Positions 10,762-38,751 of a stretch of 38,751 nucleotides of DNA are shown here, in pieces. The stretch is from the sequence record PZ465525.1. One strand, written 5' to 3'. The DNA comes from a phage. The stretch's first letter is position 1. Each line of letters opens with the position of its first letter. The notes under the pieces are model-generated. The model was not told the DNA's origin. It searched no databases and saw nothing but the letters and a program-made list of their open reading frames with translations. The position numbers and the translations under genes were made by a program.

Positions 10762-13700
10762 ATGGATAAGTACGATAAGAACGTACCAACTGAGTACGAT
10801 GGTCTGTTCCAGAAAGCTGCTGATGCCAACGGGGTCTCCTATGACCTTCTGCGCAAAGTGGCGTGGACAGAATCCCGCTTCAAGCCTACCGCCAAGTCTA
10901 AGACTGGCCCGTTGGGCATGATGCAATTCACAAAGGCCACCGCTACGGCGATGGGCCTCAAAGTAACCGGAGGTGATGACGACGAACGTCTGGTGCCAGA
11001 ACTGGCAATCAACGCTGCCGCTAAGCACCTAGCGACCCTCGTTGGGAAGTTCGATGGTGACGAACTCAAGGCTGCCCTTGCGTACAACCAAGGGGAAGGC
11101 CGAGTTGGCGGTAAGCAACTGGAAGCCTACGCCCGAGGCGACTTCGCGTCTATCTCCGAGGAAGGTCGCAACTATCTGCGCTCCCTGATGGACGTGGCTA
11201 AATCCCCTATGGCTGGTCAATTGGAGTCCTTTGGTGGTATCACCCCAAAGGGTAAAGGCATCCCTGCTGACCAAGCGTTTGCAGGGATCACCAACGACCG
11301 GAAGCGCAAGGTAGGCACTGACCTGCCGGAGTCCACTGGGTTTGACGTTAAAGGTATCACACAGGAGGAAAAGGCAGACTCGTTCGGCCATTCCTTTTGG
11401 AAGTACCACGGCGAAACCCTTGACGAATACAACGAGCGTTCCACATTCTTCGGATTCTCTGATGCTGCCGAAGCAGAACTCTCTAATTCACTCCTTGGAG
11501 TTGCCGCTCGTGCTGCTCGCCTCGATAACGGTTACGATGTTTTCATCGACACTATTACGCCGACTAAGTGGAACTCTCACGTCTGGACTCAAGAAGAGCT
11601 AGAGAAGATTAGAACCGAGGTGAAGAACCCTGCGTACATCAACGCGGTGACTGGTGGTTCACCAGAGAACCTTGACGCCCTCATTAAGCTGGCTAACGAG
11701 AACTATGGGCTGGACGCTAAGGCGGCTGATGCTGGTCTTGGGGCTAAGCTGAGTGCGGGTGTCTTGGGTGCTGGTGTTGACCCGTTGAGTTACGTTCCGG
11801 TGGTAGGCGTGACCGGTAAGGGCTTCAAACTGGTGAACAAGGCGATGGTAGTAGGTAGCCAGAGTGCTGCACTTAACGTGGCCTCTGAGGGTCTGCGTAC
11901 CTCCGTTGCTGGTGGTGATGCTGACTACGCTGGTGCTGCCTTGGGTGGCTTTGTGTTCTCCGCTGGTATGACTGCCTTGGGTGACACCTTGGCTTCCAGA
12001 ATGAGCCGCACTAAGCCGGACGCTGAGTTCACCAACGAGTTCGCTGGGCCAGCCATCCGAATGGAAGCCCGAGAGACTGCACGTAACGCCAACTCCACTG
12101 ACCTGTCCCGAGTGAACACTGAGGGTATGGAGTTCAAAGGAGAACACAACGGCGTTCCGTATGCAGACTTCAAGGCCGAGGAAGGAGCGGTAGTCCTGCA
12201 CGATGGTTCAGTCATTAGTGCTGGCAACCCGATTAACCCGAAGACTCTGAAAGAGTTCTCCGAGGTTGACCCAGAGAAGGCAGCTTGGGGCATCCGCCTT
12301 GGTGGGCTGACCGAGATTGGCTTGAAGACCCTTGGGTCTACCAATGCCGACGTTCGGAGACTTGCGAGTGACCTTGTGCGCTCACCGACTGGTATGGAGT
12401 CCGGTTCTTCCGGTAAGTTCGGGGCTACCGCCTCTGACATCTATGAGCGCCTTAAAGGCACCGACCAGCGAACCTACAACGAGCTGTATGCTGCGATGCG
12501 GGTAGCGATGGATGGCCCTGAGTTCTCCACTGGTGCTGCCAAGATGTCTCGGGAACAGGCTCGCTACGAGGTTTACCGTAGGGCTGCCCTTGCGATTGAG
12601 CGACCGGAACTCCAAGCCAACCTGACGAAGGCTGAGCTGGGTGTGATGAACATCATCAAGCGACACTTCGACACTAAGCGTGAGCTGATGGAGAACCCTG
12701 CGACCTTTGGCCGATTGGATGCCAAGAGTATCTTCCCAGAGAGTCGCCATAAGGGAACCTACGTCCCACACGTTTACGACCGGAGTGCTAAGCAACTGAT
12801 GATTCAGCGGTACGGTGCCGAAGGTCTCCAAGAGGCCATTGCCCGTTCGTGGCTCACCAGCTACGCATCCCGTCCAGAGGTTAAGGCCCGAGTTGACGAA
12901 ATGTTGGCTGAACTTCATGGTGTCAAAGATGTAACGCCGGACATGGTGACTAAACACGCTATGGACAAGGCTTATGGTATCTCTCATTCCGACCATTTCT
13001 CCAACAGCTCTATCATTGACGAGAACATCGAGGGTCTGGTAGGTATCGAGAACAACTCCTTCTTGGAGGCTCGTAACCTCTTTGACTCTGACCTTCCGGT
13101 GACTCTGCCGGACGGCCAACAGTTCTCCGTGAATGACCTGCGTGACTTCGATATGTTCCGCATCATGCCAGCGTATGACCGCCGTATCAACGGTGACATT
13201 GCCATCATGGGCTCAACAGGGAAGACCGCTAAGGAACTCAAGGATTCCATCATGGAGCTGAGCAAGAAGGCCGAGAACAACGGTCAGCTCAAGGGCGAAG
13301 TGGAGGCTCTCAAGGATACCGTCAAGATTCTCACTGGGCGAGCCCGTAGGAACCATGACACTGCCTTTGAGACTGCACTACGTTCCATCAATGACCTTGG
13401 CTTCTTCGCAAAGAACGCCTACATGGGCGCTCAGAACATCACCGAGATTGCTGGTATGCTGGCAACAGGTAACGTTCGAGCACTGGGCCACGGTATCCCG
13501 ATTCTGTGGGACACTCTCTACAAGTCAAAGCCTGTAAGTGCTTCTGAGCTCAAGGAAATCCATGCGTCCCTGTTCGGGCGTGAGATTGACCAGTTGATTC
13601 GTCCCAAGCGAGCTGACATTGTGCAGCGCCTTCGGGAATCGACCGACACTGGGCCACTTCTCGCCAACATCGTTGGAACCTTGAAGTACAGCACTCAGGA

Positions 13701-14727
13701 ACTTGCAGCCCGCTCTCCGTGGACTAAGCTACTGAACGGCACGACCAACTACATTCTCGATGCTGCCCGTCAAGGGCTACTTGGGGATGTCATTGAGGCG
13801 ACCCTCAAAGGCAAGACAACCAAGTGGGAATCTGCTGGTTTCCTTCGAGGTGCCTCTGTGTCTCCTGAGCAGATGGCCGGAATCCGGTCACTAATTAAGG
13901 AACACATGGTTCGTGGAGAGGACGGTAAGTATTCCGTTAAGGACAAGCAGGCATTCAGTCTTGACCCACGGGCGATGGACTTGTGGCGACTGGCCGATAA
14001 GGTGGCCGATGAAGCGATACTGCGGCCACACAAGGTTTCCTTACAGGACTCCAAGGCGTTCGGTGCGCTTGGCAGGATGGCGTTGCAGTTCAAGACCTTC
14101 ACCATCAAGTCCCTGAACTCCAAGTTCCTGCGGACGTTCTATGATGGCTACAAGAACAACCGAGCGATTGACGCTGCACTCACTGGGATTATCTCAATGG
14201 GTCTTGCTGGCGGATACTACGCTATGGCTGCCCACGCTAAAGCCTACGCTCTACCTGAGGAGCGGCGAAAGGCGTACCTTGAGAAAGCACTGAACCCGAC
14301 CATGATTGCTCACGCTTCATTGTCCCGAAGTGCCCAACTGGGTGCCCCGATGGCGATGGTTGACCTTGTAGGTGGTGGCGTCTTTGGCTTTGAGTCCTCA
14401 AAGATGGTCCGTTCGTCAATCCTTCCGAAGGACACTTCGTACCAGCGCGACCCTAACAAGCCGTACACCGCTCAGGAGGTATTGGGAAACATGGGGTCTA
14501 ACCTGCTGGAACAGATGCCTTCGGCTGGCTTTGTGGCTAACGTTGGTGCTTCCGTGCTTAACGCTGCGGGAGTCGCTACGGCAACCAACAAGGCTACTGA
14601 GCAGGACTTTATGACTGGCTTGATGAACTCCTCTAAGGAGCTCGTACCGAATGACCCGTTGACCCAACAGTTAATCCTCAAAATATACGAAGCCAATGGC
14701 ATCAATTTGAAGGAGAAGCGCAAGTAA
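10762..14727 (+). CDS. 16: gp16 internal virion protein D with N-terminal lytic transglycosylase domain
   Basis: 1321-aa ORF (T7 gp16 is 1318 aa); N-terminal transglycosylase-like signature (...TESRFKPTAKS...GPLGMMQFTKAT...); stop TAA is the first three bases of phi17. Confidence 0.95.
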   Translation: MDKYDKNVPTEYDGLFQKAADANGVSYDLLRKVAWTESRFKPTAKSKTGPLGMMQFTKATATAMGLKVTGGDDDERLVPELAINAAAKHLATLVGKFDGDELKAALAYNQGEGRVGGKQLEAYARGDFASISEEGRNYLRSLMDVAKSPMAGQLESFGGITPKGKGIPADQAFAGITNDRKRKVGTDLPESTGFDVKGITQEEKADSFGHSFWKYHGETLDEYNERSTFFGFSDAAEAELSNSLLGVAARAARLDNGYDVFIDTITPTKWNSHVWTQEELEKIRTEVKNPAYINAVTGGSPENLDALIKLANENYGLDAKAADAGLGAKLSAGVLGAGVDPLSYVPVVGVTGKGFKLVNKAMVVGSQSAALNVASEGLRTSVAGGDADYAGAALGGFVFSAGMTALGDTLASRMSRTKPDAEFTNEFAGPAIRMEARETARNANSTDLSRVNTEGMEFKGEHNGVPYADFKAEEGAVVLHDGSVISAGNPINPKTLKEFSEVDPEKAAWGIRLGGLTEIGLKTLGSTNADVRRLASDLVRSPTGMESGSSGKFGATASDIYERLKGTDQRTYNELYAAMRVAMDGPEFSTGAAKMSREQARYEVYRRAALAIERPELQANLTKAELGVMNIIKRHFDTKRELMENPATFGRLDAKSIFPESRHKGTYVPHVYDRSAKQLMIQRYGAEGLQEAIARSWLTSYASRPEVKARVDEMLAELHGVKDVTPDMVTKHAMDKAYGISHSDHFSNSSIIDENIEGLVGIENNSFLEARNLFDSDLPVTLPDGQQFSVNDLRDFDMFRIMPAYDRRINGDIAIMGSTGKTAKELKDSIMELSKKAENNGQLKGEVEALKDTVKILTGRARRNHDTAFETALRSINDLGFFAKNAYMGAQNITEIAGMLATGNVRALGHGIPILWDTLYKSKPVSASELKEIHASLFGREIDQLIRPKRADIVQRLRESTDTGPLLANIVGTLKYSTQELAARSPWTKLLNGTTNYILDAARQGLLGDVIEATLKGKTTKWESAGFLRGASVSPEQMAGIRSLIKEHMVRGEDGKYSVKDKQAFSLDPRAMDLWRLADKVADEAILRPHKVSLQDSKAFGALGRMALQFKTFTIKSLNSKFLRTFYDGYKNNRAIDAALTGIISMGLAGGYYAMAAHAKAYALPEERRKAYLEKALNPTMIAHASLSRSAQLGAPMAMVDLVGGGVFGFESSKMVRSSILPKDTSYQRDPNKPYTAQEVLGNMGSNLLEQMPSAGFVANVGASVLNAAGVATATNKATEQDFMTGLMNSSKELVPNDPLTQQLILKIYEANGINLKEKRK

Positions 14728-14797: not shown

Positions 14798-16660
14798 ATG
14801 GCTAACGTGATTAAAACTGTGCTGACTTATCCGCTGGATGGCTCGACTACGGACTTCAACATCCCGTTCGAGTATCTGGCCCGTAAGTTTGTCGTGGTGA
14901 CTCTGCTCGGTGTAGACCGCCGAGTCCTGACGTTGCCCACCGATTACCGATTCGCTACCCGCACGGTCATTGCAACCAACAAGGCGTGGGGGCCAGCCGA
15001 TGGTTACACTCAAATCGAAATCCGCCGAGTGACTTCGGCCACTGAGCGACTGGTGGACTTTACGGATGGCTCGATTCTCCGAGCGTATGACCTGAACGTC
15101 GCCCAAATACAGACCATGCACGTTGCTGAGGAGGCCCGTAACATGACCGCCGATACTATCGGTGTCAACAACGATGGTCATTTGGACGCCCGTGGTCGTA
15201 GGATTGTTAACTTGGCGTATGCCACAAGTGACCATGATGCCGTTCCTTTAAAGCAGATTAAAGAGCGTGAATCCTCTGCATGGAATGCCGTAACAAAAGC
15301 TAACGAACATGCTGACCGTTCCAATAGGGAGGCAAACCGTTCTCGTGACGAGGCCAGCCGCGCTCAACGTGAAGCTGACCGCTCAGCTCAACAGGCAGGT
15401 GTCTCTACGCAACAAGCAGTCGAGGCCAAGAAGCAAGCTGACCGTTCCAGCTCCGAGGCTGACCGAGCCAAAGGTTATGCTGACAGTATGACCGCAAGTG
15501 TCGCTGAGGCCAAGAAGCAAGCTGACCGTTCCGGCTCTGAGGCCAATCGTGCCAGTGATGGGGCCAATCGTGCTGCCGGAGAAGTGACTAAAGCTGCTGC
15601 TGAGGTTGCCAAGGCTGCTACACACGTTGGGACCGCTAAGGGACATGCTGATAGGGCTAACATTGAGGCAAACCGCTCCAAAGGTGAGGCTGACCGTGCT
15701 AAGTCTGAGGCCGACAAGTTGAAAAACATGAACGAGTTCGCTGGGGCGATTAAGGAGGTAACACCGAACAGCATTACGTTCAACCGTGGGGTTGTAGCCA
15801 ATAGCGCTGGGTTCCGATCAATGGTGGCCCCCCACCAGACTCCAAACGTTGGTGTTTGGCGGCAGGACAAGTCCGAGCTGAACATGACTGTTGACGAGAG
15901 TGGAAACACTGGATTCGTTGGGGCTGTTGGTACTCCGTGGCTTGGTTACTGGAACACCACTAAGGACACCTACGTTAGCACGACTACGTGGAACTACGAC
16001 AGCGGGGGTCGCCAAATCAAGGGAACTCTTGAGGTAGGGTACGGAAACAACTCGTCTATCCTTACAAGCTCTTTGGGTGAAAGTGATGCTGGCAACTGGA
16101 CATGTTTGACCAACTATAAGTGGTACAATGGGGGTGTCCGGATTGGCTCTGTACGTGGAAGCGGTCAAGATTGCAACGGACTCCTCCGCACAATCGATGG
16201 CTCTATAGGAAAATACATGGACTACTGGCAGAAAGTTGGTGAGAACAAGCATATTTTCTATAACCGCGAAGGTGGGAAAGCTCTTGAGGTACACGCAAAC
16301 GGCGATATGATTATGGAGTGGGGCGGCCTCCTGTCAGACCAAATACGAGCACGCTCACCCAAGCGGTGGACTTGGGTATACCTTGGGGCTGTAGCTGTTT
16401 CCAGTGACTTCGTTCTGAACTTCGGTCGCGATGTACGCGGGCTCCGTGGGTTCTTCGGCTTCCGTGGTGATCGAAGAGAGGTGGTGTATAAGCCGTTCAC
16501 GTTCCCGCCGCTGGACTGCAACTTCCAGATTAACCGAAAGGGGGACTGGCAGGTGTTCCAACTGACAAACGGTGGAACCACACTGATTCGCCGCTACGGA
16601 TGGCATGAGGGCGGGGACAACTACGAGTTCTACGCTGAGACTCCAAACGACAACTACTAA
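14798..16660 (+). CDS. 17: gp17 tail fibre protein (conserved N-terminal adaptor domain, coiled-coil shaft, divergent C-terminal receptor-binding region)
   Basis: 620 aa; N-terminal ~150 aa MANVIKTVLTYPLDGS...FEYLARKFVVVTL...ILRAYDLNVAQIQTMHVAEEAR nearly identical to T7 gp17; the shaft has repeated ADRS-type heptads; the C-terminal half has no resemblance to T7 gp17 (553 aa) as recalled. Confidence 0.93.
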   Translation: MANVIKTVLTYPLDGSTTDFNIPFEYLARKFVVVTLLGVDRRVLTLPTDYRFATRTVIATNKAWGPADGYTQIEIRRVTSATERLVDFTDGSILRAYDLNVAQIQTMHVAEEARNMTADTIGVNNDGHLDARGRRIVNLAYATSDHDAVPLKQIKERESSAWNAVTKANEHADRSNREANRSRDEASRAQREADRSAQQAGVSTQQAVEAKKQADRSSSEADRAKGYADSMTASVAEAKKQADRSGSEANRASDGANRAAGEVTKAAAEVAKAATHVGTAKGHADRANIEANRSKGEADRAKSEADKLKNMNEFAGAIKEVTPNSITFNRGVVANSAGFRSMVAPHQTPNVGVWRQDKSELNMTVDESGNTGFVGAVGTPWLGYWNTTKDTYVSTTTWNYDSGGRQIKGTLEVGYGNNSSILTSSLGESDAGNWTCLTNYKWYNGGVRIGSVRGSGQDCNGLLRTIDGSIGKYMDYWQKVGENKHIFYNREGGKALEVHANGDMIMEWGGLLSDQIRARSPKRWTWVYLGAVAVSSDFVLNFGRDVRGLRGFFGFRGDRREVVYKPFTFPPLDCNFQINRKGDWQVFQLTNGGTTLIRRYGWHEGGDNYEFYAETPNDNY

Positions 16661-16671
16661 AGGACAACCTC

Positions 16672-16687
16672 AGGCCCACGGAAGGGC
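16672..16687 (+). promoter_or_regulatory. Short hairpin downstream of gene 17
   Basis: GGCCC-ACGGAA-GGGCC: perfect 5-bp inverted repeat with a 6-nt loop; possible RNA processing or stability element. Confidence 0.35.
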
Positions 16688-16692
16688 CATCT

Positions 16693-19974: not shown

Positions 19975-20365
19975 GGTCTGCCTAAGGCTCAACGCTGAGG
20001 GATTCAGCGGTATGATTGCATCACACCACTTCATCCCTATAGAGTCAAGTCCTAAGGTATACCCTAAAGGCCACACCTTAGGATTATCAATGGGTCTACC
20101 CAGAAGTCCACCTAAGGGTGGGCTGTACTGTGTGTGTGGTCTTAAAGAGGGAACCTAGGGAGTGCCCTAAGGAGACCCTTTAAAATATACCACAAAAATC
20201 TGAGCGACTATCTCACAGTTCAGAAACCCAAAGTTCCCCCATAGGGTATCCCAAGGGGTGGCCCTCTTAATGGCCCCACTTGAGACGCTTTGAGAGACCC
20301 TAAGGGATGACCTAAGGTTTACCATTGAGAGACCCTAAGGACTAAGCCTAGACCTAAGGGGAGGC
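19975..20365. repeat. Cluster of short CCTAAGG / CCTTAGG palindromic motifs at the right-end / concatemer-junction region
   Basis: About nine CCTAAGG-type motifs by eye (e.g. GCCTAAGGCTC, GTCCTAAGGTATACCCTAAAGG, CCACCTAAGGGTGG, GACCCTAAGGGATGACCTAAGG, GACCTAAGGGGAGG). Confidence 0.6.
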
Positions 20366-20972: not shown

Positions 20973-21112
20973 TAAGCACCTTAACGAAGACACCGAACGG
21001 CACGGTATACTGTCGGGCTCAGGATGAATTCCCTCTTGTGGGATGAAAAAGTGGGCATGGCGAAGGCACGAACTGCTACGCAAAGTAGCTATACCCAACG
21101 CCGAACACTGAA

Positions 21113-21187: not shown

Positions 21188-21643
21188 ATGATTTTCACTA
21201 AAGAACCTGCGAACATCTTCTATGTGCTGGTCTCTGCTTTCCGCTCAAACCTCGACGACGCTGAGAATATGAGCAGACACCGCCATATGGTTAGCACTTT
21301 ACGTGCCGCAGAAGGTCTTTATGGCTCCATTGAGTCAACCGATTTGACCGGATGCTATCGTGAGGAAATCGCAAGCGCGCCGACTGAGGAAAAAACTGTT
21401 CGTGTACGCTGCAAGGACGAGGCGCAGGCGCTCAATGTTGCACGTCTGGCTTGCAATGAGTGGGAACAAGATTGTGTGCTGGTATACAACTCCCAGACTC
21501 ACACTGCCAGCCTGATGTACGCTAAAGGCACCGATGGGCATAAGACCGAGCGTCTGGGGAGATTCCAAGAAGTGTCTAAAGGCGCACCGCTGCAAGGCTG
21601 CTACACGATTGACGAGTTTGGTCGCCGCTGGCAAGTACAATAA
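21188..21643 (+). CDS. S-adenosylmethionine-cleaving enzyme (T3 gene 0.3-type SAMase / SAM lyase), anti-restriction
   Basis: 151 aa, MIFTKEPANIFYVLVSAFRSNL...GAPLQGCYTIDEFGRRWQVQ, near-identical to the T3 SAMase as recalled; RBS GAGGT. Confidence 0.9.
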   Translation: MIFTKEPANIFYVLVSAFRSNLDDAENMSRHRHMVSTLRAAEGLYGSIESTDLTGCYREEIASAPTEEKTVRVRCKDEAQALNVARLACNEWEQDCVLVYNSQTHTASLMYAKGTDGHKTERLGRFQEVSKGAPLQGCYTIDEFGRRWQVQ

Positions 21644-21688: not shown

Positions 21689-21718
21689 CACTTTGAAACA
21701 ACGCACGGGATTACTGTC

Positions 21719-21856
21719 ATGCTGAAATATTACGTTATGCCAATCCGTCACTCCACTGGTGCCACTGTATGCACTCCAGATGGGTTCGCAATGAAAGCAC
21801 GTATCGAGCGCCTTAAGCGCGAACTCCGCACCAATCGCAAACTGAACAACATCTGA
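21719..21856 (+). CDS. 0.6: gene 0.6-like small early protein
   Basis: 45 aa, MLKYYVMPIRHSTGATVCTPDGFAMKARIERLKRELRTNRKLNNI, very similar to T7 gp0.6A (recalled); the ORF-track start 21644 lies inside the hairpin. Confidence 0.75.
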   Translation: MLKYYVMPIRHSTGATVCTPDGFAMKARIERLKRELRTNRKLNNI

Positions 21857-21888: not shown

Positions 21889-22410
21889 ATGAAACGCAAT
21901 GCTAATGCTTATTACGAACTGCTGGCCGCTACTGTTGAGGCATTCAATGAGCGCATCCAAGAAGACAAGTTGACCGAGGATAGTGATTACCACGATGCCC
22001 TGCATAAAGTGGTTGACCGGATGGTTCCGAGCTACTACTGGGAAATCTTCATGGTCATGGCGGCTGACGGTATTGACGTTGAGTTTGACGATGATGGTCT
22101 GATGCCAGACACCAAGGATGTTACCCGAATCCTGCAAGCCCGCATCTACGAGGCGCTATATAACGATGTGCCCAACGATAGCGGGGTCGAATGGTACGAA
22201 GGCGAGGAGGAGGAGGAGCCCGAGGAGCCAAGCCAGTGGTATGTAATCAATGATGAAGAACACGGGAGCTTTGTGGTCTCCTTTCACGACTCACTAAAGG
22301 CAGCCATTGAGGCAGCCGATGAACGATACAATACGCTGGGCAAGCGGTGCCACGTTGAGGATGATACCAGCTCAGATGTGCTTTACAATCCGGTAACTGC
22401 TGACGAGTGA
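21889..22410 (+). CDS. ocr: Ocr-like DNA-mimic anti-restriction protein with a ~65-aa C-terminal extension
   Basis: 173 aa; residues ~30-100 (HDALHKVVDRMVPSYYWEIFMVMAADGIDVEFDDDGLMPDTKDVTRILQARIYEAL) align to T7 Ocr (117 aa, recalled); RBS CTGAGGTAACACACT-ATG is the T7 0.3-type initiation region. Confidence 0.85.
   Translation: MKRNANAYYELLAATVEAFNERIQEDKLTEDSDYHDALHKVVDRMVPSYYWEIFMVMAADGIDVEFDDDGLMPDTKDVTRILQARIYEALYNDVPNDSGVEWYEGEEEEEPEEPSQWYVINDEEHGSFVVSFHDSLKAAIEAADERYNTLGKRCHVEDDTSSDVLYNPVTADE
22281..22303 (+). promoter_or_regulatory. Promoter-like relic inside the Ocr-like coding sequence
   Basis: CTTTCACGACTCACTAAAGGCAG matches the consensus core ACGACTCACTA-AGG but lacks the TAATA upstream part; probably nonfunctional. 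Confidence 0.3.
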
Positions 22411-29876: not shown

Positions 29877-30332
29877 ATGTCTGGCGCATACGCTGCGCGT
29901 GGTATCCGAAAGGTCGGGGCATTCCGCTCCGGCCTTGAAGATAAGGTCTCTAAGCAGCTAGAGAGTAAAGGAGTGAAGTTTGACTACGAGTTGTGGAAGA
30001 TTCCATACGTAGTCCCTGCAAGCAATCATGGGTATACACCAGACTTCCTGCTGCCTAATGGAATCTTCATTGAAACCAAAGGTTTATGGGATAGTGACGA
30101 CCGAAAGAAACACTTATTGATTCGTGAACAGTTTCCCGAACTGGACATCCGTCTAGTGTTCTCAAGCTCTCGCACGAAGCTGTACAAAGGGTCTCCGACC
30201 AGTTACGGTGAGTGGTGCGAGAAGCACGGTATCCTGTTTGCTGACAAATTAATTCCTGTAGAATGGCTCAAAGAACCCAAAAAGGAGGTGCCATTTGACA
30301 AGCTGAAACAATTGAAGGGAGGAAAGAAGTAA
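29877..30332 (+). CDS. 3: gp3 endonuclease I (Holliday junction resolvase)
   Basis: 151 aa, ...GIRKVGAFRSGLEDKVSKQLESKG...PDFLLPNGIFIETKG..., highly similar to T7 gp3 (recalled). Confidence 0.96.
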   Translation: MSGAYAARGIRKVGAFRSGLEDKVSKQLESKGVKFDYELWKIPYVVPASNHGYTPDFLLPNGIFIETKGLWDSDDRKKHLLIREQFPELDIRLVFSSSRTKLYKGSPTSYGEWCEKHGILFADKLIPVEWLKEPKKEVPFDKLKQLKGGKK

Positions 30333-30787
30333 TGTCTCGAGTACAATTCAAACAGAGGGAGGCGACTAACGCCATTTTTGTACACTGCTCTGCAACCAAG
30401 GCAACTCAGGACGTTGGTGTCCGTGAGATTCGCCAGTGGCACAAGGAGCAAGGCTGGCTTGACGTAGGCTACCACTTCATCATTCGCCGTGATGGCACTA
30501 TCGAAGATGGCCGAGACGTTAACGCCGTGGGCTCTCATGCCCGTGGTTACAACCACAACTCCGTAGGCGTGTGCCTTGTTGGGGGCATTGACGAGAAGGG
30601 TCGGCACGAAGCCAACTTCACTCCTCAACAGATGTCTGCCCTGCGCACACTGCTGGAAGTCCTGATGGACAAGTACCCGAGCGCGGTACTTCGCGCCCAC
30701 CACGATGTTGCACCGAAGGCTTGCCCTTCGTTCGACCTGCAACGCTGGTGGAGGCACAATGAGCTGGTCACTTCTGACCGAGGCTAA
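30332..30787 (+). CDS. 3.5: gp3.5 lysozyme (N-acetylmuramoyl-L-alanine amidase; RNAP inhibitor)
   Basis: 151 aa, MSRVQFKQREATNAIFVHCSATK...AHHDVAPKACPSFDL..., highly similar to T7 lysozyme (recalled); TAATG overlap with gene 3. Confidence 0.97.
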   Translation: MSRVQFKQREATNAIFVHCSATKATQDVGVREIRQWHKEQGWLDVGYHFIIRRDGTIEDGRDVNAVGSHARGYNHNSVGVCLVGGIDEKGRHEANFTPQQMSALRTLLEVLMDKYPSAVLRAHHDVAPKACPSFDLQRWWRHNELVTSDRG

Positions 30788-30807
30788 TACGACTCACTAA
30801 AGGGATG
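30785..30807 (+). promoter_or_regulatory. Phage RNAP class II promoter (phi3.8-like)
   Basis: TAATACGACTCACTAAAGGGATG. Confidence 0.85.
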
Positions 30808-30870
30808 ACCGAAAGGTTGTCCCTTTGTTTCAACACAGGGAGGAAGCTATAGAGGCCATGTCTAACTTGA

Positions 30871-32586
<1,716 letters not shown>

Positions 32587-32605
32587 GCGCATCCTTGACG
32601 ACTTT

Positions 32606-32628
32606 TAATACGACTCACTAATGGGATA
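32606..32628 (+). promoter_or_regulatory. Phage RNAP class II promoter (phi4.3-like)
   Basis: TAATACGACTCACTAATGGGATA. Confidence 0.8.
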
Positions 32629-32659
32629 ACCCACACATCAACCGAGAAGGAAGCACACT

Positions 32660-32878
32660 ATGAGCATCATGAAAATCATCAAAGGCTTTGGCCGCATTGT
32701 CGTTCGCATGTATAACCACGAGGCTGCCCGCCTGAACAAGGTTGCCCGTGCGGAAGCCACTCTGGCCCGCGAGCTGGCCGAGCGTTCCAACAAGCTGAGC
32801 GCAAGCTCCATGAAGAACATCGATGAGGCCGCTAAGGTAGCCTCTCAGGCCCAAGAGCTGTCCAAGTTCTTCGCTTAA
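32660..32878 (+). CDS. 4.3: gp4.3-like small protein
   Basis: 72-aa ORF with RBS GAAGGAAG, at the T7 gene 4.3 position. Confidence 0.7.
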   Translation: MSIMKIIKGFGRIVVRMYNHEAARLNKVARAEATLARELAERSNKLSASSMKNIDEAAKVASQAQELSKFFA

Positions 32879-32921
32879 TCCTACAGATACCAACCTGACA
32901 ACCACAAGAGGAGAGTTCACT

Positions 32922-33194
32922 ATGAGCAAGGTATCCCAGACTATCGCCCTGTCCGACACCATCGACCAGTGGGGCCGCAAGGTTCACATCAACGTTCGCA
33001 ACGGCAAGGCCACTATGGTCTACCGCTGGAAGGACACCAAGTCCAACAAGAAGCATACCCAGCGCATGACTCTGAGTGACGAGCAAGCGTTACGTCTGCT
33101 GAAAGCATTGACAGGCGCTGTTGTCCACGCGGTTGAGGCCAGTGGTCGCCAAGAGCAGGCTATGGAGATTCTGAACCGAATCGAGGCTGAGTGA
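32922..33194 (+). CDS. 4.5: gp4.5-like small protein
   Basis: 90-aa ORF with RBS AAGAGGAG, at the T7 gene 4.5 position. Confidence 0.7.
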   Translation: MSKVSQTIALSDTIDQWGRKVHINVRNGKATMVYRWKDTKSNKKHTQRMTLSDEQALRLLKALTGAVVHAVEASGRQEQAMEILNRIEAE

Positions 33195-33195
33195 T

Positions 33196-33234
33196 AGGCT
33201 TAAGGTCGTTCCTTCGGGAGCGGCCTTTGTGACT
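33196..33234 (+). promoter_or_regulatory. RNase III-type processing hairpin (R4.7-like)
   Basis: GGCTTAAGGTCGTTCCTTCGGGAGCGGCCTTTGTGACTG. Confidence 0.7.
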
Positions 33235-33236
33235 GT

Positions 33237-33262
33237 TATTCGGCTCACTTCTATAGATAGGT
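33237..33262 (+). promoter_or_regulatory. Decayed phage-promoter-like remnant (phi4.7 position)
   Basis: TTATTCGGCTCACTTCTATAGATAGG resembles the consensus but has an insertion and substitutions; no gene 4.7 ORF follows. Confidence 0.3.
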
Positions 33263-33299
33263 TGGGGAATGCCATAAGGTATCTTAAAGGAGAACTCTA

Positions 33300-35258
33300 A
33301 TGATTGTCTCAGACATCGAATCAAACGGCCTACTTGAGACCACTACTAAATTCCATTGCGCGGTTATCTATGACTACAGTACAGGAGAATACAGCAAGTA
33401 TCGCCCTGTGGACTTTAATAAATACCTTGACGCATTAGAAGCTGAGGTAGCAAAGGGAGGACTCATAGTAGGACATAACTTCGCTAAATTTGACATCCCT
33501 GCGTTAACCAAGTTGGCTAAGTTGCAATTGAACCGAGAGTTCAACATTCCTCGTGAGAACTGTGTGGATACCCTCGTGCTGTCCAGACTGATTCACTCGA
33601 ACCTCAAGGACACCGATATGGGTCTCCTGCGCTCCGGTAAACTGCCGGGCAAACGCTACGGTTCCCACGCTCTGGAAGCATGGGGCTACCGCTTAGGCGA
33701 AATGAAGGGTGAGTACAAGGACGACTTCAAGGCTGCTCTTGAGGAGCAAGGTGAGGAGTACGTTGAGGGAATGGAGTGGCGCTCATTCAACGAGGACATG
33801 CTGGCCTATAACGTTCAGGACGTTGTGGTCACTAAGGCCCTCCTTGAGAAGCTACTTTCCGACAAGCACTACTTCAAGCCTGAGGTGGACTTCACGGATG
33901 TCTCTGCGGATACCTTCTGGATGGAGGCTATCGAGGCGATTGACGTGGAGCACCGAGCCGCTTGGTTGCTCGCTAAGCAGGAGCGCAACGGCTACCCGTT
34001 CAACACCAAGGCTATCGAAGACCTGTACGTTGAGCTGGCCTCTCGCCGCTCTGAGTTGCTGAAGCGACTGACCGAGACGTTCGGCTCTTGGTATCAGCCT
34101 AAGGGTGGCACCGAAATGTTCCTACACCCACGCACTGGTCAGCCGCTCCCGAAGTATCCGCGAGTGAAGACCCCGAAGGTCGGAGGCATCTTCAAGAAGC
34201 CCAAGAACAAAGCCCAGCGCGAAGGTCGTGAGCCCTGTGAGCTGGACACTCGGGACTTCGTTGCTGGTGCCGTTTACACTCCGGTGGAGCACGTTGTCTT
34301 CAACCCTTCGTCCCGCGACCACATCCAGAAGAAGCTCCAAGAGGCTGGCTGGGTGCCCGAGAAGTTCACCGATAAGGGTGCTCCGGTAGTGGACGACGAG
34401 GTGCTTGAAGGCGTTGTTGTGGACGACCCTGAGAAGCAAGCAGCCATCGACCTCATTAAGGAGTACCTGATGATTCAGAAGCGAATCGGTCAGAGTGCTG
34501 AGGGCGACAAGGCGTGGCTGCGCTACGTTGCGGAGGACGGTAAGATTCATGGTAGCGTTAACCCTAACGGTGCGGTTACTGGTCGTGCCACTCACGCCTT
34601 CCCGAACCTTGCGCAAATCCCAAGTGTTCGGTCTCCGTATGGCGAACAGTGCCGTGCTGCATTCGGGGCTGAACACCATCTTGATTACGTCACTGGGGAA
34701 CCTTGGGTTCAAGCTGGTATCGACGCATCCGGTCTTGAGCTGCGCTGCTTGGCCCACTTCATGGCTCGATTCGACAACGGCGAGTATGCCCATGAGATTC
34801 TGAACGGTGACATTCACACCAAGAACCAGTTGGCTGCCGAGCTGCCGACCCGAGACAACGCCAAGACCTTCATCTACGGTTTCCTCTATGGGGCCGGAGA
34901 CGAGAAGATTGGTCAGATTGTTGGTGCTGGTAAGGAACGCGGTAAGGAACTCAAGAAGAAATTCCTTGAGAATACCCCTGCGATTGCTGCGCTCCGTGAG
35001 TCCATCCAATCGACTCTCGTTGAGAGTTCCCAATGGGTGGCTGGTGAACAGCAAGTCAAGTGGAAGCGCCGTTGGATTAAGGGCATGGATGGCCGTAAGG
35101 TTCACGTCCGTAGCCCACACGCTGCGCTGAACACTGTGCTGCAATCCGCTGGTGCGCTTATCTGCAAGCTGTGGATTATCAAGACCGAGGAAATGCTCAT
35201 TGAGAAGGGCTACAAGCACGGCTGGGATGGAGACTTTGCGTACATGGCATGGGTGCAT
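33300..35258 (+). CDS. 5: gp5 DNA polymerase, exon 1 (codons 1-653)
   Basis: Near-identical to T7 DNA polymerase through ...GWDGDFAYMAWVH, then drops into 8 unrelated codons and a stop (35282); the real coding sequence resumes at 35861. Confidence 0.93.
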
Positions 35259-35860
35259 AAACTATCTCATTGTGCACGTTAAATCTGGTGAACTCGGTGA
35301 AACCCTTCTGGGGGCAATACCGAGCCAAGCCATAGGGAGGATATATGAGAGGCAAGAAGTTAATCCTTGCGACCACAGAGAGTGGTTGTATCATCCCTAC
35401 GTCACACAAACTTAATGCTGATGGTTATTTCCGAAAGAAGACGAACGGTGTCCTAGAGATGTATCACAGGACAGTCTGGAAGGAGCACTACGGAGATATA
35501 CCAGAAGGGTATGAAGTAGACCATAGGTGTAGGAACAGGGCGTGCTGTAACGTAGAGCACCTTCAGTTACTAGAAGGTTCTGAGCATACAGTAAAGACAA
35601 ACAGGGAACGCTACGCTGACCGTAAAGAGTCCGCGAAGGAATACTGGTTGGAGACTGGATGCACAGGAACACACTTAGGTGAGAAGTTTGGTGTAACGTT
35701 CTCTGCAGCTTGTAAGTGGATTAGAGAGTGGAAGGCGTAGAGACTATCCGAAAGGAGTAGGGCCGAGGGTGAGACTCCCTCGTTACCCGAAGCGCCAGAC
35801 AGTCAACTCAAAGACTGATGATATAGTCCGACACTCCTAGTAATAGGAGAATACAGAAAG
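35259..35860 (+). mobile_element. Group I-type self-splicing intron interrupting gene 5 at polymerase motif C, carrying an HNH homing endonuclease ORF
   Basis: 602-nt insertion between the H and DE codons of the conserved VHDE motif; exon 1 ends in T (35258) and the insert ends in G (35860); GTGCAC at 35272-35277 can pair with the exon end GTGCAT to form P1 with a U-G pair at the splice site; downstream helices (GACTAT/ATAGTC, GAGGG/CCCTC, GGAGT/ACTCC) present. Confidence 0.85.
35345..35740 (+). CDS. Intron-encoded HNH homing endonuclease
   Basis: 131-aa ORF with RBS GGGAGG; HNH/zinc motif ...EGYEVDHRCRNRACCNVEHLQLLEGSEHTVKTN... Confidence 0.88.
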   Translation: MRGKKLILATTESGCIIPTSHKLNADGYFRKKTNGVLEMYHRTVWKEHYGDIPEGYEVDHRCRNRACCNVEHLQLLEGSEHTVKTNRERYADRKESAKEYWLETGCTGTHLGEKFGVTFSAACKWIREWKA

Positions 35861-36016
35861 GATGAGATTCAAGTAGGTTGCCGTACCGAAGAGATTGCTC
35901 AGGTAGTCATTGAGACCGCCCAAGAGGCTATGCGCTGGGTAGGCGAGCACTGGAACTTCCGGTGTCTGCTGGATACCGAAGGCAAGATGGGGCCTAACTG
36001 GGCCGTGTGCCACTAA
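35861..36016 (+). CDS. 5: gp5 DNA polymerase, exon 2 (C-terminal 51 codons)
   Basis: In-frame continuation DEIQVGCRTEEIAQVVIETAQEAMRWVGEHWNFRCLLDTEGKMGPNWAVCH*, matching the T7 DNA polymerase C-terminus; joined product is 704 aa, the T7 length. Confidence 0.9.
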   Translation, partial: DEIQVGCRTEEIAQVVIETAQEAMRWVGEHWNFRCLLDTEGKMGPNWAVCH

Positions 36017-36036
36017 TACGACTCACTAAAGGAGAC
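36014..36036 (+). promoter_or_regulatory. Phage RNAP promoter overlapping the gene 5 stop codon (drives 5.5-5.7-5.9-6)
   Basis: TAATACGACTCACTAAAGGAGAC: class II-type variant (CACTAAAGGAG); the TAA stop of gene 5 is its first three bases. Confidence 0.8.
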
Positions 36037-36040
36037 CACT

Positions 36041-36343
36041 ATGGCTATGACCAAACGATACAAAGTAACCTTCGAGATTACCGCGAAGCTGGCCACCAAG
36101 GAGGTGGAGACGTTCACCAATGGTCTTATCGAGACCTCTCGCAAAATCGTTGAAGGTAAACCCGTTAACCCAGAACTTCGTGCTTGCGTAATGGCTGCCC
36201 TTGAGGGAGGCGTTGAGGCCGCTGTTGAGTGCGTCTATCGCCGTGGTGTTCGTGAACTGATTCGCGATGCCTACAACGAAATGTGCAGCGAAGAACGTGC
36301 AGCCACTAAGTTCTCACCAGCAACCGTGGAGGTGTTGAAATGA
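36041..36343 (+). CDS. 5.5: gp5.5 (H-NS-binding protein homologue)
   Basis: 100 aa starting MAMTKRYKVTFEITAK..., ending ...SPATVEVLK, like T7 gp5.5 (99 aa, recalled). Confidence 0.85.
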   Translation: MAMTKRYKVTFEITAKLATKEVETFTNGLIETSRKIVEGKPVNPELRACVMAALEGGVEAAVECVYRRGVRELIRDAYNEMCSEERAATKFSPATVEVLK

Positions 36344-38394: not shown

Positions 38395-38751
38395 TGACCA
38401 AGAAGCGGTTCGTTAGCGTAGAGGCGGTCAGTCGCTTCCACGCGATTATGTGGACTGTGCAGTACCTTGGGGTGCCCACTGGTTTCCGCGACTTCTGGGA
38501 TTACGAAGGATACGTCAATAACATCATGGACGCTGCTGAGTTCGAGGAGGAGTACATCATGGACTCCACTACTGGCAACTTGGTGGCCTACTTCACGTGG
38601 TGTGTCAGTAACGACATTCACCACAAGGGAGACATAATGGACGTGACGAACTTGGTGATTGACCCAGAGTTCGAGTCGCGGGAACTCCATAAGTTCCTGA
38701 GTGGTCGCTTTAAGGAGCTGGCCGAGCTGAATGGTCTACAATGGGTGTCCC
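38394..38751 (+). CDS. 7: Gene 7 host-range/virion protein, N-terminal part (truncated by the window end; continues at 1-174)
   Basis: ATG 38394 overlaps the 6.7 stop (TGATG); MTKKRFVSVEAVSRFHAIMWTVQYLGVPTGF... is in frame with bases 1-174 once the 121-bp end overlap is removed. Confidence 0.8.
   Translation, partial: MTKKRFVSVEAVSRFHAIMWTVQYLGVPTGFRDFWDYEGYVNNIMDAAEFEEEYIMDSTTGNLVAYFTWCVSNDIHHKGDIMDVTNLVIDPEFESRELHKFLSGRFKELAELNGLQWVS
38631..38751. repeat. 121-bp exact duplicate of window positions 1-121 (circular-assembly overlap, not a biological repeat)
   Basis: 38631-38751 (GACATAATGGACGTGACGAACTTGG...ATGGGTGTCCC) is identical to 1-121; it lies inside gene 7. Confidence 0.9.

Follow-up and report, generated by a model that had tools for sequence, protein, structure and literature searches.

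A probable deletion scar of an endonuclease VII-type homing endonuclease gene between genes 4.5 and 5 of a T7-like phage

The spacer upstream of the DNA polymerase gene

A gap of 105 bp (33195-33299) precedes the DNA polymerase gene (gene 5) in the T7-like phage genome analyzed here (record PZ465525.1; the whole stretch of DNA, 38,751 nt, is referred to as the window). Upstream of the gap lies a homologue of T7 gene 4.5 (32922-33194, plus strand; 69% identity to T7 gp4.5, E 1e-39), and the gap contains, all on the plus strand, a hairpin, the upstream half of a promoter and the 3′ end of a homing endonuclease gene (HEG). An exact-protein look-up with gp4.5 of the window returned neither an identical record nor a sister assembly.

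The window holds a T7-like genome in circularly permuted form. Since its ends are identical over 121 bases (positions 1-121 are an exact duplicate of 38631-38751), they represent the overlap of a circular assembly, which leaves a unique genome length of 38,630 bp; in relatives, the physical ends correspond to window positions near 20163-20284. The T7-like gene order is complete, as judged by tblastn with all annotated T7 proteins. The nearest cluster, a tight Teseptimavirus group, consists of Aeromonas phage vB_AroA_KFSA9, Stenotrophomonas phage IME15, Escherichia phage Ebrios and Aeromonas phages PZL-Ah1 and avDM11-UST, with ~93-96% nucleotide identity to the window in aligned regions, while the identity of T7 is ~72-89%.

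The hairpin (33191-33239, plus strand), identified by folding and homology, is an R4.7-type structure and a putative RNase III processing site. It is composed of a lower stem (33191-33197/33233-33239), internal loops and an upper stem (33202-33212/33217-33227), and its predicted energy is -24.1 kcal/mol (z = -5.1; 0/200 shuffles were as good). It aligns with the hairpin located ahead of phi4.7 in T7 (T7 13860-13890), which we take to be the mapped R4.7 RNase III site and which is not annotated in the T7 record examined. The structure is thus stable, has two stems with an internal loop, is intergenic and is homologous to its T7 counterpart, which bears out the claim of an earlier, sequence-only reading of this DNA that the hairpin at the 4.7 slot has been kept. 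The hairpin belongs to a repeat family with members at 21642 and 22405, sister hairpins were located at window positions 21110, 21643 and 22406, and a search of the whole window, including the hairpin, gave no Rfam match at the gathering threshold. A role as an intrinsic terminator was rejected, as the hairpin is not followed by a T-run and a terminator scan of 30700-36100 was empty.

Alignments and a position weight matrix (PWM) built from the window's 15 promoters, which are strong copies of the T7 consensus TAATACGACTCACTATAGGGAGA, revealed a truncated phi4.7 class II promoter at 33236-33249 (plus strand), represented by positions -17 to -4 only (TTATTCGGCTCACT). The sequence-only reading had described a degraded promoter at this place, quoting the string TTATTCGGCTCACTTCTATAGATAGG (33236-33261). 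A promoter-like string is real, at 33236-33258, but the description does not fit it: 13 of the 14 bases from -17 to -4 agree with phi4.7 of the relatives, with a private A>G at -10 (33243), and from -3 onward the sequence is foreign and derives from the 3′ end of an endonuclease gene. The recognition region -17 to -5 (TTATTCGGCTCAC) retains 10/13 consensus bases and 12/13 of those of the relatives' phi4.7, and the melting and initiation region -4 to +6 (TATAGGGAGA in the consensus) has been lost, the window reading TTCTATAGAT. The PWM score of the remnant is 0.8 bits in total (+12.5 for the upstream half and -11.7 for the downstream half), compared with 22.7 bits for phi4.7 of the relatives (upstream half 17.6), 21.7 for T7 phi4.7 and 29-40 for the 15 intact promoters of the window.

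The fused sequence might nevertheless be read as a weak promoter which starts in TATAG/ATAGG and in which a C>T change is adaptive. Its recognition positions -12 to -5 are kept except for -10, the private C>T at 33254 makes the TATAG motif, and with the full-length PWM the remnant ranks 35th of 77,216 positions. However, this TATAG is part of the endonuclease tail (all four intact copies have TCTACAG) and is displaced by 3 nt from the consensus register, in which positions +1 to +3 are A, T and A, not GGG. Moreover, -10 lies within the recognition region of T7 promoters (-12 to -5), and 0.8 bits is to be set against at least 21.7 for class II promoters known to be weak, T7 phi4.7 among them. 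We therefore consider residual promoter activity improbable; judged from its sequence, the half promoter is very probably dead. It appears to have been cut at -4/-3 by a deletion itself, with no later erosion, and the A>G at -10 is the only substitution that could represent later decay.

The promoter set of the window differs from that of T7 in other places. There is an extra strong site at 36014-36036 (29.3 bits), directly after gene 5 and before 5.5, and phi4c inside gene 4 is missing (31983). The phi1.6-like position and the region upstream of 17.5 gave only weak matches, of 11.9 and 14.4 bits, respectively (sites 28111 and 16691).

The element that follows the half promoter is the 3′ remnant of an Endonuclease_7 (DHHRN-type) HEG (33250-33300, plus strand). 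It consists of the last 16 codons (SIDRLGNAIRYLKGEL) with the stop codon TAA at 33298-33300, is identical to the corresponding gene of KFSA9 at 48/51 nt and to that of Escherichia phage AV103 at 49/51 nt, and bears two or three private substitutions. Its peptide corresponds to DSTDRLWNAIRYLKGEL in the same frame in KFSA9, and the frame and the stop are those of the HEGs of KFSA9, AV103, Teseptimavirus PDP351P2 and Salmonella phage RN5i1. The TAA overlaps the ATG of gene 5, whose Shine-Dalgarno sequence AAGGAG (33287-33292) lies within the remnant. The Endonuclease_7 catalytic domain (CX2-4C, DHDH, R, CX2C, N) is not present in the scar, the remnant being located downstream of the motif, and we accordingly class the scar as what appears to be a remnant of an Endo VII-type HEG and not as a member of the family. 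As for hidden coding capacity, the spacer contains only a 23-codon fused GTG ORF on the plus strand, without a ribosome-binding site, and two ORFs in antisense, both unsupported.

Register comparison with KFSA9 places the deletion junction at 33249-33250, and BLAST alignments break at 33249 against every relative. The left flank (33186-33249), which contains the 4.5 stop, the hairpin and phi4.7 positions -17 to -4, is identical to KFSA9 14060-14123 at 62/64 positions and to avDM11 at 99%; the right flank (33249-33320) shows ~95% identity to KFSA9 from 14522. The intervening 398 bp (KFSA9 14124-14521) are missing from the window, and T33249 could belong to either flank, which gives 1 nt of microhomology. 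The sequence itself shows where the breaks lie and what each flank is, that the promoter has lost its melting and initiation half, and that the hairpin is intact. From this we conclude, with considerable confidence, that the spacer is the scar of one 398-bp deletion which removed a HEG and halved the promoter; transcription of gene 5 by read-through is predicted.

The junction (TTCGRCTCACTTCTAYAGATAGGTTG) gave 0 exact-pattern matches in viral, metagenome and genome contig collections, and no record spanned it in one piece when a 201-nt query across it was used in BLAST. As the junction is unique among the sequences searched, the evidence for it comes from this one assembly. This uniqueness, and the origin of the window from a circular assembly with a 121-bp overlap, would fit an assembly artefact or a deletion that occurred during laboratory propagation. 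We find this very improbable: the breakpoints contain no repeats that could mislead an assembler, only the 1-nt microhomology, and the private substitutions suggest elapsed time, although they could predate the deletion. Furthermore, a similar and more diverged second scar is present in the 3.8 slot of the window, and Salmonella phage Vi06 demonstrates such deletions in other sequenced isolates (both are described below).

The lost endonuclease gene and the linked part of gene 5

The intact protein of KFSA9 (145 aa, annotated as 'endonuclease VII') contains an Endonuclease_7 domain (PF02945, E 1e-19, residues 62-142) with the C-terminal motif CIDHDH...R...CWHCN. The nearest intact copies are those of KFSA9 (XMN70176), AV103 (WPK33053) and RN5i1 (UJD21311), and besides KFSA9 the HEG is located directly upstream of gene 5 in AV103, PDP351P2 and RN5i1. 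Its protein is 94-98% identical between phages whose genomes are ~82% identical to the window or less. In AV103 and PDP351P2 the HEG occurs in place of gene 4.7, behind phi4.7 and with an identical left junction; in RN5i1 (Berlinvirus) it has been inserted between 4.7 and gene 5, and both genes are present. IME15, Ebrios, PZL-Ah1, avDM11 and T7 carry gene 4.7 in the slot, which may thus hold, depending on the phage, 4.7, the HEG, both, or a scar. The gene is therefore distributed sporadically and appears to have spread horizontally together with flanking sequence, as is expected of a HEG. Proteins with the Endo VII motif and such an architecture form a putative HEG clade found in podoviruses whose genomes encode endonuclease I as well (PMC6083498); the window contains an endonuclease I gene (29877-30332).

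Windowed identity revealed that the 5′ part of gene 5 (33300-33540, plus strand) is of the HEG-linked allele type and forms a putative co-conversion tract. The region 33249-33540, i.e. the HEG tail and the first ~240 nt of gene 5, is 97% identical to AV103, 94-97% to KFSA9 and 61-62% to IME15; in the remainder of exon 1 (33541-35190) the values are 73-85% for AV103, 92-100% for KFSA9 and 93-98% for IME15. From these values we infer a mosaic of the kind that would be expected if the HEG had moved by homing and taken neighboring gene 5 sequence along. HEGs have been reported at boundaries of genetic exchange between phages (PMC10448857).

These data bear directly on the order of events suggested by the sequence-only reading, namely a clean deletion of the nonessential gene 4.7 followed by decay of phi4.7 through point mutations. 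Gene 4.7 is indeed missing (T7 gp4.7 gave no tblastn match anywhere in the window), it is present in the slot of four close relatives, and there is one private substitution at -10. Nevertheless, the sequence 3′ of -4 is the end of a HEG (48-49/51 nt) and does not resemble the transition from 4.7 to gene 5 in IME15 and Ebrios. In addition, nine promoter positions in a row are altered, precisely at the point at which homology to the HEG tail starts, which marks a breakpoint, and the adjacent 5′ end of gene 5 is HEG-linked and only 61% identical to the 4.7-linked type. Since the tail is a HEG end and the 4.7-type junction is different, the last occupant of the slot was the endonuclease gene, not 4.7, and decay after loss of 4.7 is extremely improbable. 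What survives of this proposal is the deletion of a nonessential gene and a promoter that is very probably disabled; the damage to the latter came from truncation in the deletion event, not from decay.

The opposite polarity was also considered, i.e. that the window represents an ancestral empty site into which the HEG was inserted in KFSA9, AV103 and PDP351P2. HEGs do insert intergenically, RN5i1 with its HEG between 4.7 and gene 5 being an example, but an insertion would leave unexplained both the missing promoter positions -3 to +6, which are present in T7, IME15, Ebrios, KFSA9 and AV103, and the 16 in-frame C-terminal HEG codons with an identical stop. This is the least probable of the explanations weighed here, and deletion of a resident HEG remains our preferred reading of the spacer.

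Other gene slots, a second scar and the insert in gene 5

The reading made from the sequence had also listed T7 genes 0.4, 0.5, 3.8, 4.7, 5.3 and 7.7 as missing, and this stands, no free-standing homologue of any of them having been found by tblastn. Genes 0.4, 0.5, 4.7 and 5.3 have no homologue in the window, and the products of T7 2.8, 3.8 and 7.7 match only the HNH ORF in gene 5, the one exception being a weak hit of the C-terminal part of gp3.8 (residues 94-120) at 30828-30902. The close spacing of genes 7.3 and 8 was confirmed as well, the start of gene 8 (461) lying 13 nt past the stop of 7.3 (447).

The absences differ in their distribution among relatives. Free-standing 5.3 and 7.7 are absent from 5/5 closest relatives, and so do not represent losses specific to this genome. 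No 0.4 homologue was seen in the 0.3-0.6A slot of the relatives, and gene 0.5 is present in IME15, PZL-Ah1 and avDM11 and absent from Ebrios. The 4.7 slot, with its Endo VII-type HEG scar in the window, is occupied by 4.7 in IME15, Ebrios, PZL-Ah1 and avDM11 and by the HEG in KFSA9; the 3.8 slot bears a scar of a 3.8-type HEG with HNH and AP2 domains, which is present as a HEG in KFSA9 and Ebrios, IME15, PZL-Ah1 and avDM11 having none. T7 genes 3.8, 5.3 and 7.7 are mobile HNH genes. As 3.8 and 7.7 are HNH endonucleases according to the T7 record, their absence may be due to gain in T7 no less than to loss in the window.

The SAM lyase-0.6A slot (21691-21722) is empty in the window and in Ebrios, holds an unrelated 53-codon membrane-like ORF in KFSA9 and a homologue of T7 0.5 in IME15, PZL-Ah1 and avDM11, and in all of them the RNase III-type upstream hairpin is kept. 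The early region contains an S-adenosylmethionine lyase gene of the T3 0.3 type (21188-21643; PF23780, E 1e-44) and a homologue of the DNA mimic Ocr (21889-22410, 173 aa; PF08684, E 1e-27) with a C-terminal extension of ~75 residues past the Ocr domain. A 0.6A homologue lies between these two genes, an arrangement common to the whole IME15/KFSA9 clade.

In the second scar (30829-30905, plus strand), the HNH_3+AP2 HEG is reduced to its leader with the ribosome-binding site (TTCAACACAGGGAGGAAGCTAT), joined to the final ~15 codons of its C-terminal coding end, as revealed by register comparison with KFSA9 11291-11779 and Ebrios_18. The HEG, which is intact in KFSA9 and Ebrios, is a longer homologue of T7 gene 3.8. 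Only a 15-codon ORF had been noted between the phi3.8-like promoter (30785) and gene 4 (30883), which is correct; this ORF (30858-30905) is the HEG tail and overlaps the start of gene 4. Loss of a gene at this slot is thus supported, and its trace had gone unrecognized in the sequence-only reading. This scar is more diverged than the one in the 4.7 slot. Here, too, the neighboring gene is affected: over its first ~180 nt, gene 4 is similar to that of the relatives which carry the endonuclease gene, and not to that of IME15.

An independent scar of the Endo VII-type HEG was found in the same slot of Salmonella phage Vi06 (FR667955, 786-955). There, a deletion of 343 bp with breakpoints other than those of the window (the left one at ~-13 of the promoter, with 3-6 nt of microhomology) left ~117 nt of the HEG tail. 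In 3/3 scars the part of the HEG that was kept includes the signals from which translation of the essential gene behind it starts, which offers a simple explanation for the absence of deletions with endpoints beyond it.

Gene 5 itself is interrupted by a group I intron-like element of 602 nt (35259-35860, plus strand), located between exon 1 (33300-35258) and exon 2 (35861-36013), to which T7 gp5 residues 1-653 and 654-704, respectively, map by tblastn. The insert matches RF00028 over its full length with 37.7 bits (E 6e-8); as the gathering score is 50, this match was obtained at a permissive threshold only. It follows codon 653, within motif C (VH|DE; Pol I site 881), and the predicted 5′ splice site is after U35258, with G35860 as the last intron base. 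It carries a 131-codon HNH_3 ORF (35345-35740; E 1.6e-16) and is 96-98% identical to the insert of AV103. The insertion site is the one reported for the introns of PhiI and W31 (PMC3428280), with which the window shares the interruption of motif C; in the window there is an RF00028 match and an HNH ORF, and splicing is predicted. A frameshift in gene 5, giving 660 instead of 704 residues, was rejected, because the missing 51 residues are found 602 nt downstream in exon 2. The 660-codon ORF is thus best interpreted as exon 1 read into the intron and not as a truncated gene, and the '5.3-type' endonuclease appears here to be intron-borne and not absent. Gene 5 of Vi06 is annotated as joined pieces.

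The conclusion drawn previously from these absences, a streamlined accessory complement, is overstated and only weakly justified. With 38,630 bp the genome falls within the usual size range of its clade (37.6-39.8 kb), 5.3 and 7.7 are absent clade-wide, and the 602-nt intron-like element has been gained.

Outside these slots, the 3′ half of gene 17 (15249-16690) is the most divergent late-region part in comparison with the clade. This distal half shows ~67% identity to IME15 and PZL-Ah1, and KFSA9 and Ebrios match it partially; it contains four direct repeats of ~49 nt, of one family (15296-15701). The divergence may reflect a difference in host range.

Proposed course of the loss and comparison with known systems

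The deletion that we favor may have proceeded as follows. The ancestor would have been similar to KFSA9 and AV103, with gene 4.5, an RNase III-type hairpin, phi4.7, a HEG of 145 codons and gene 5, the stop codon of the HEG overlapping the gene 5 start codon. Homing would have brought in the HEG, accompanied by ~290 nt of gene 5. One illegitimate deletion of 398 bp, at 1-nt microhomology, would then have fused the promoter at position -4 with the final 16 codons of the HEG, removing promoter positions -3 to +6, the ribosome-binding site of the HEG and its codons 1-129, and the HEG-linked allele of gene 5 would have been kept after the HEG was lost.

The half promoter would have been silent from then on. 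Two intact promoters lie upstream on the plus strand, the phi3.8-like (30785-30807; PWM 34.0 bits) and the phi4.3-like one (32606-32628; 35.2 bits), the latter being the nearest functional-looking promoter upstream of gene 5. As the scan found no terminator-like structure in 30700-36100, gene 5 is predicted to be transcribed by read-through from both. By analogy with the homologous T7 site, host RNase III may still cut the hairpin, and gene 5 would be translated from the AAGGAG at 33287-33292 inside the HEG remnant. The tail of the HEG was presumably retained because it carries the Shine-Dalgarno sequence of this essential gene, only deletions ending upstream of the latter being viable.

The finding represents ordinary turnover of HEGs and accessory genes in T7-like phages. 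It does correct the annotation of this region, an apparently decaying promoter being the clean deletion junction of a mobile endonuclease gene, and it provides a compact, datable example of a HEG that was shed while the translation signals of its essential neighbor and the linked allele were kept. For annotators and engineers, the spacer between 4.5 and 5 is predicted to lack a working class II promoter, so that gene 5 would depend on the upstream promoters; a putative intron interrupts gene 5, and its 660-codon ORF is not a truncated polymerase.

A broader proposal, which we put forward only tentatively and consider rather doubtful, is that the HEG is lost recurrently by one-step deletions, constrained in their 3′ endpoints by the gene 5 ribosome-binding site, and that the gene 5 allele left behind is presumably resistant to cleavage and cannot be re-invaded. 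If this were true, the empty site would be immune to homing and would offer an exit from the cycle of gain, loss and regain. On this view, the two scars of the window and the independent scar of Vi06 would suggest that purging of HEGs is selected in this lineage, and it might compensate for the gain of the 602-nt intron in gene 5.

The region resembles the R4.7/phi4.7 region of T7 in its location after gene 4.5 and in its homologous hairpin, in whose upper stem the bases of the window differ from those of T7 and are still complementary. T7 phi4.7 (ATTCGACTCACT) and the window (ATTCGGCTCACT) are homologous from -17 to -4. Unlike T7 phi4.7, the promoter of the window is devoid of the initiation half (-3 to +6) and is not followed by a gene of its own.

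The remnant corresponds to the 3′ end of a free-standing HEG of the DHHRN family, typified by F-CphI of cyanophage S-PM2 (PMC6083498). Like DHHRN HEGs, its intact relatives are sporadic, occur in phages that encode endonuclease I and are located directly before an essential gene. In contrast to these HEGs, the window keeps 16 codons and no catalytic residue, and homing by the copies of T7-like phages is putative, as judged from their sequences.

The patchy distribution of the HEG and the linked mosaic tract in the neighboring gene are features of a gain-loss cycle, and its states are represented by phages in which the HEG is intact (KFSA9, AV103), deleted (the window, Vi06) or in which the site was never invaded (IME15, T7). 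In the model of Goddard and Burt, HEGs are said to cycle through gain, degeneration and loss. The case described here departs from that cycle in two respects: the loss in the window was a one-step deletion and not a degeneration by point mutations, and the endpoints of such deletions seem to be constrained by the translation signals of the downstream gene.
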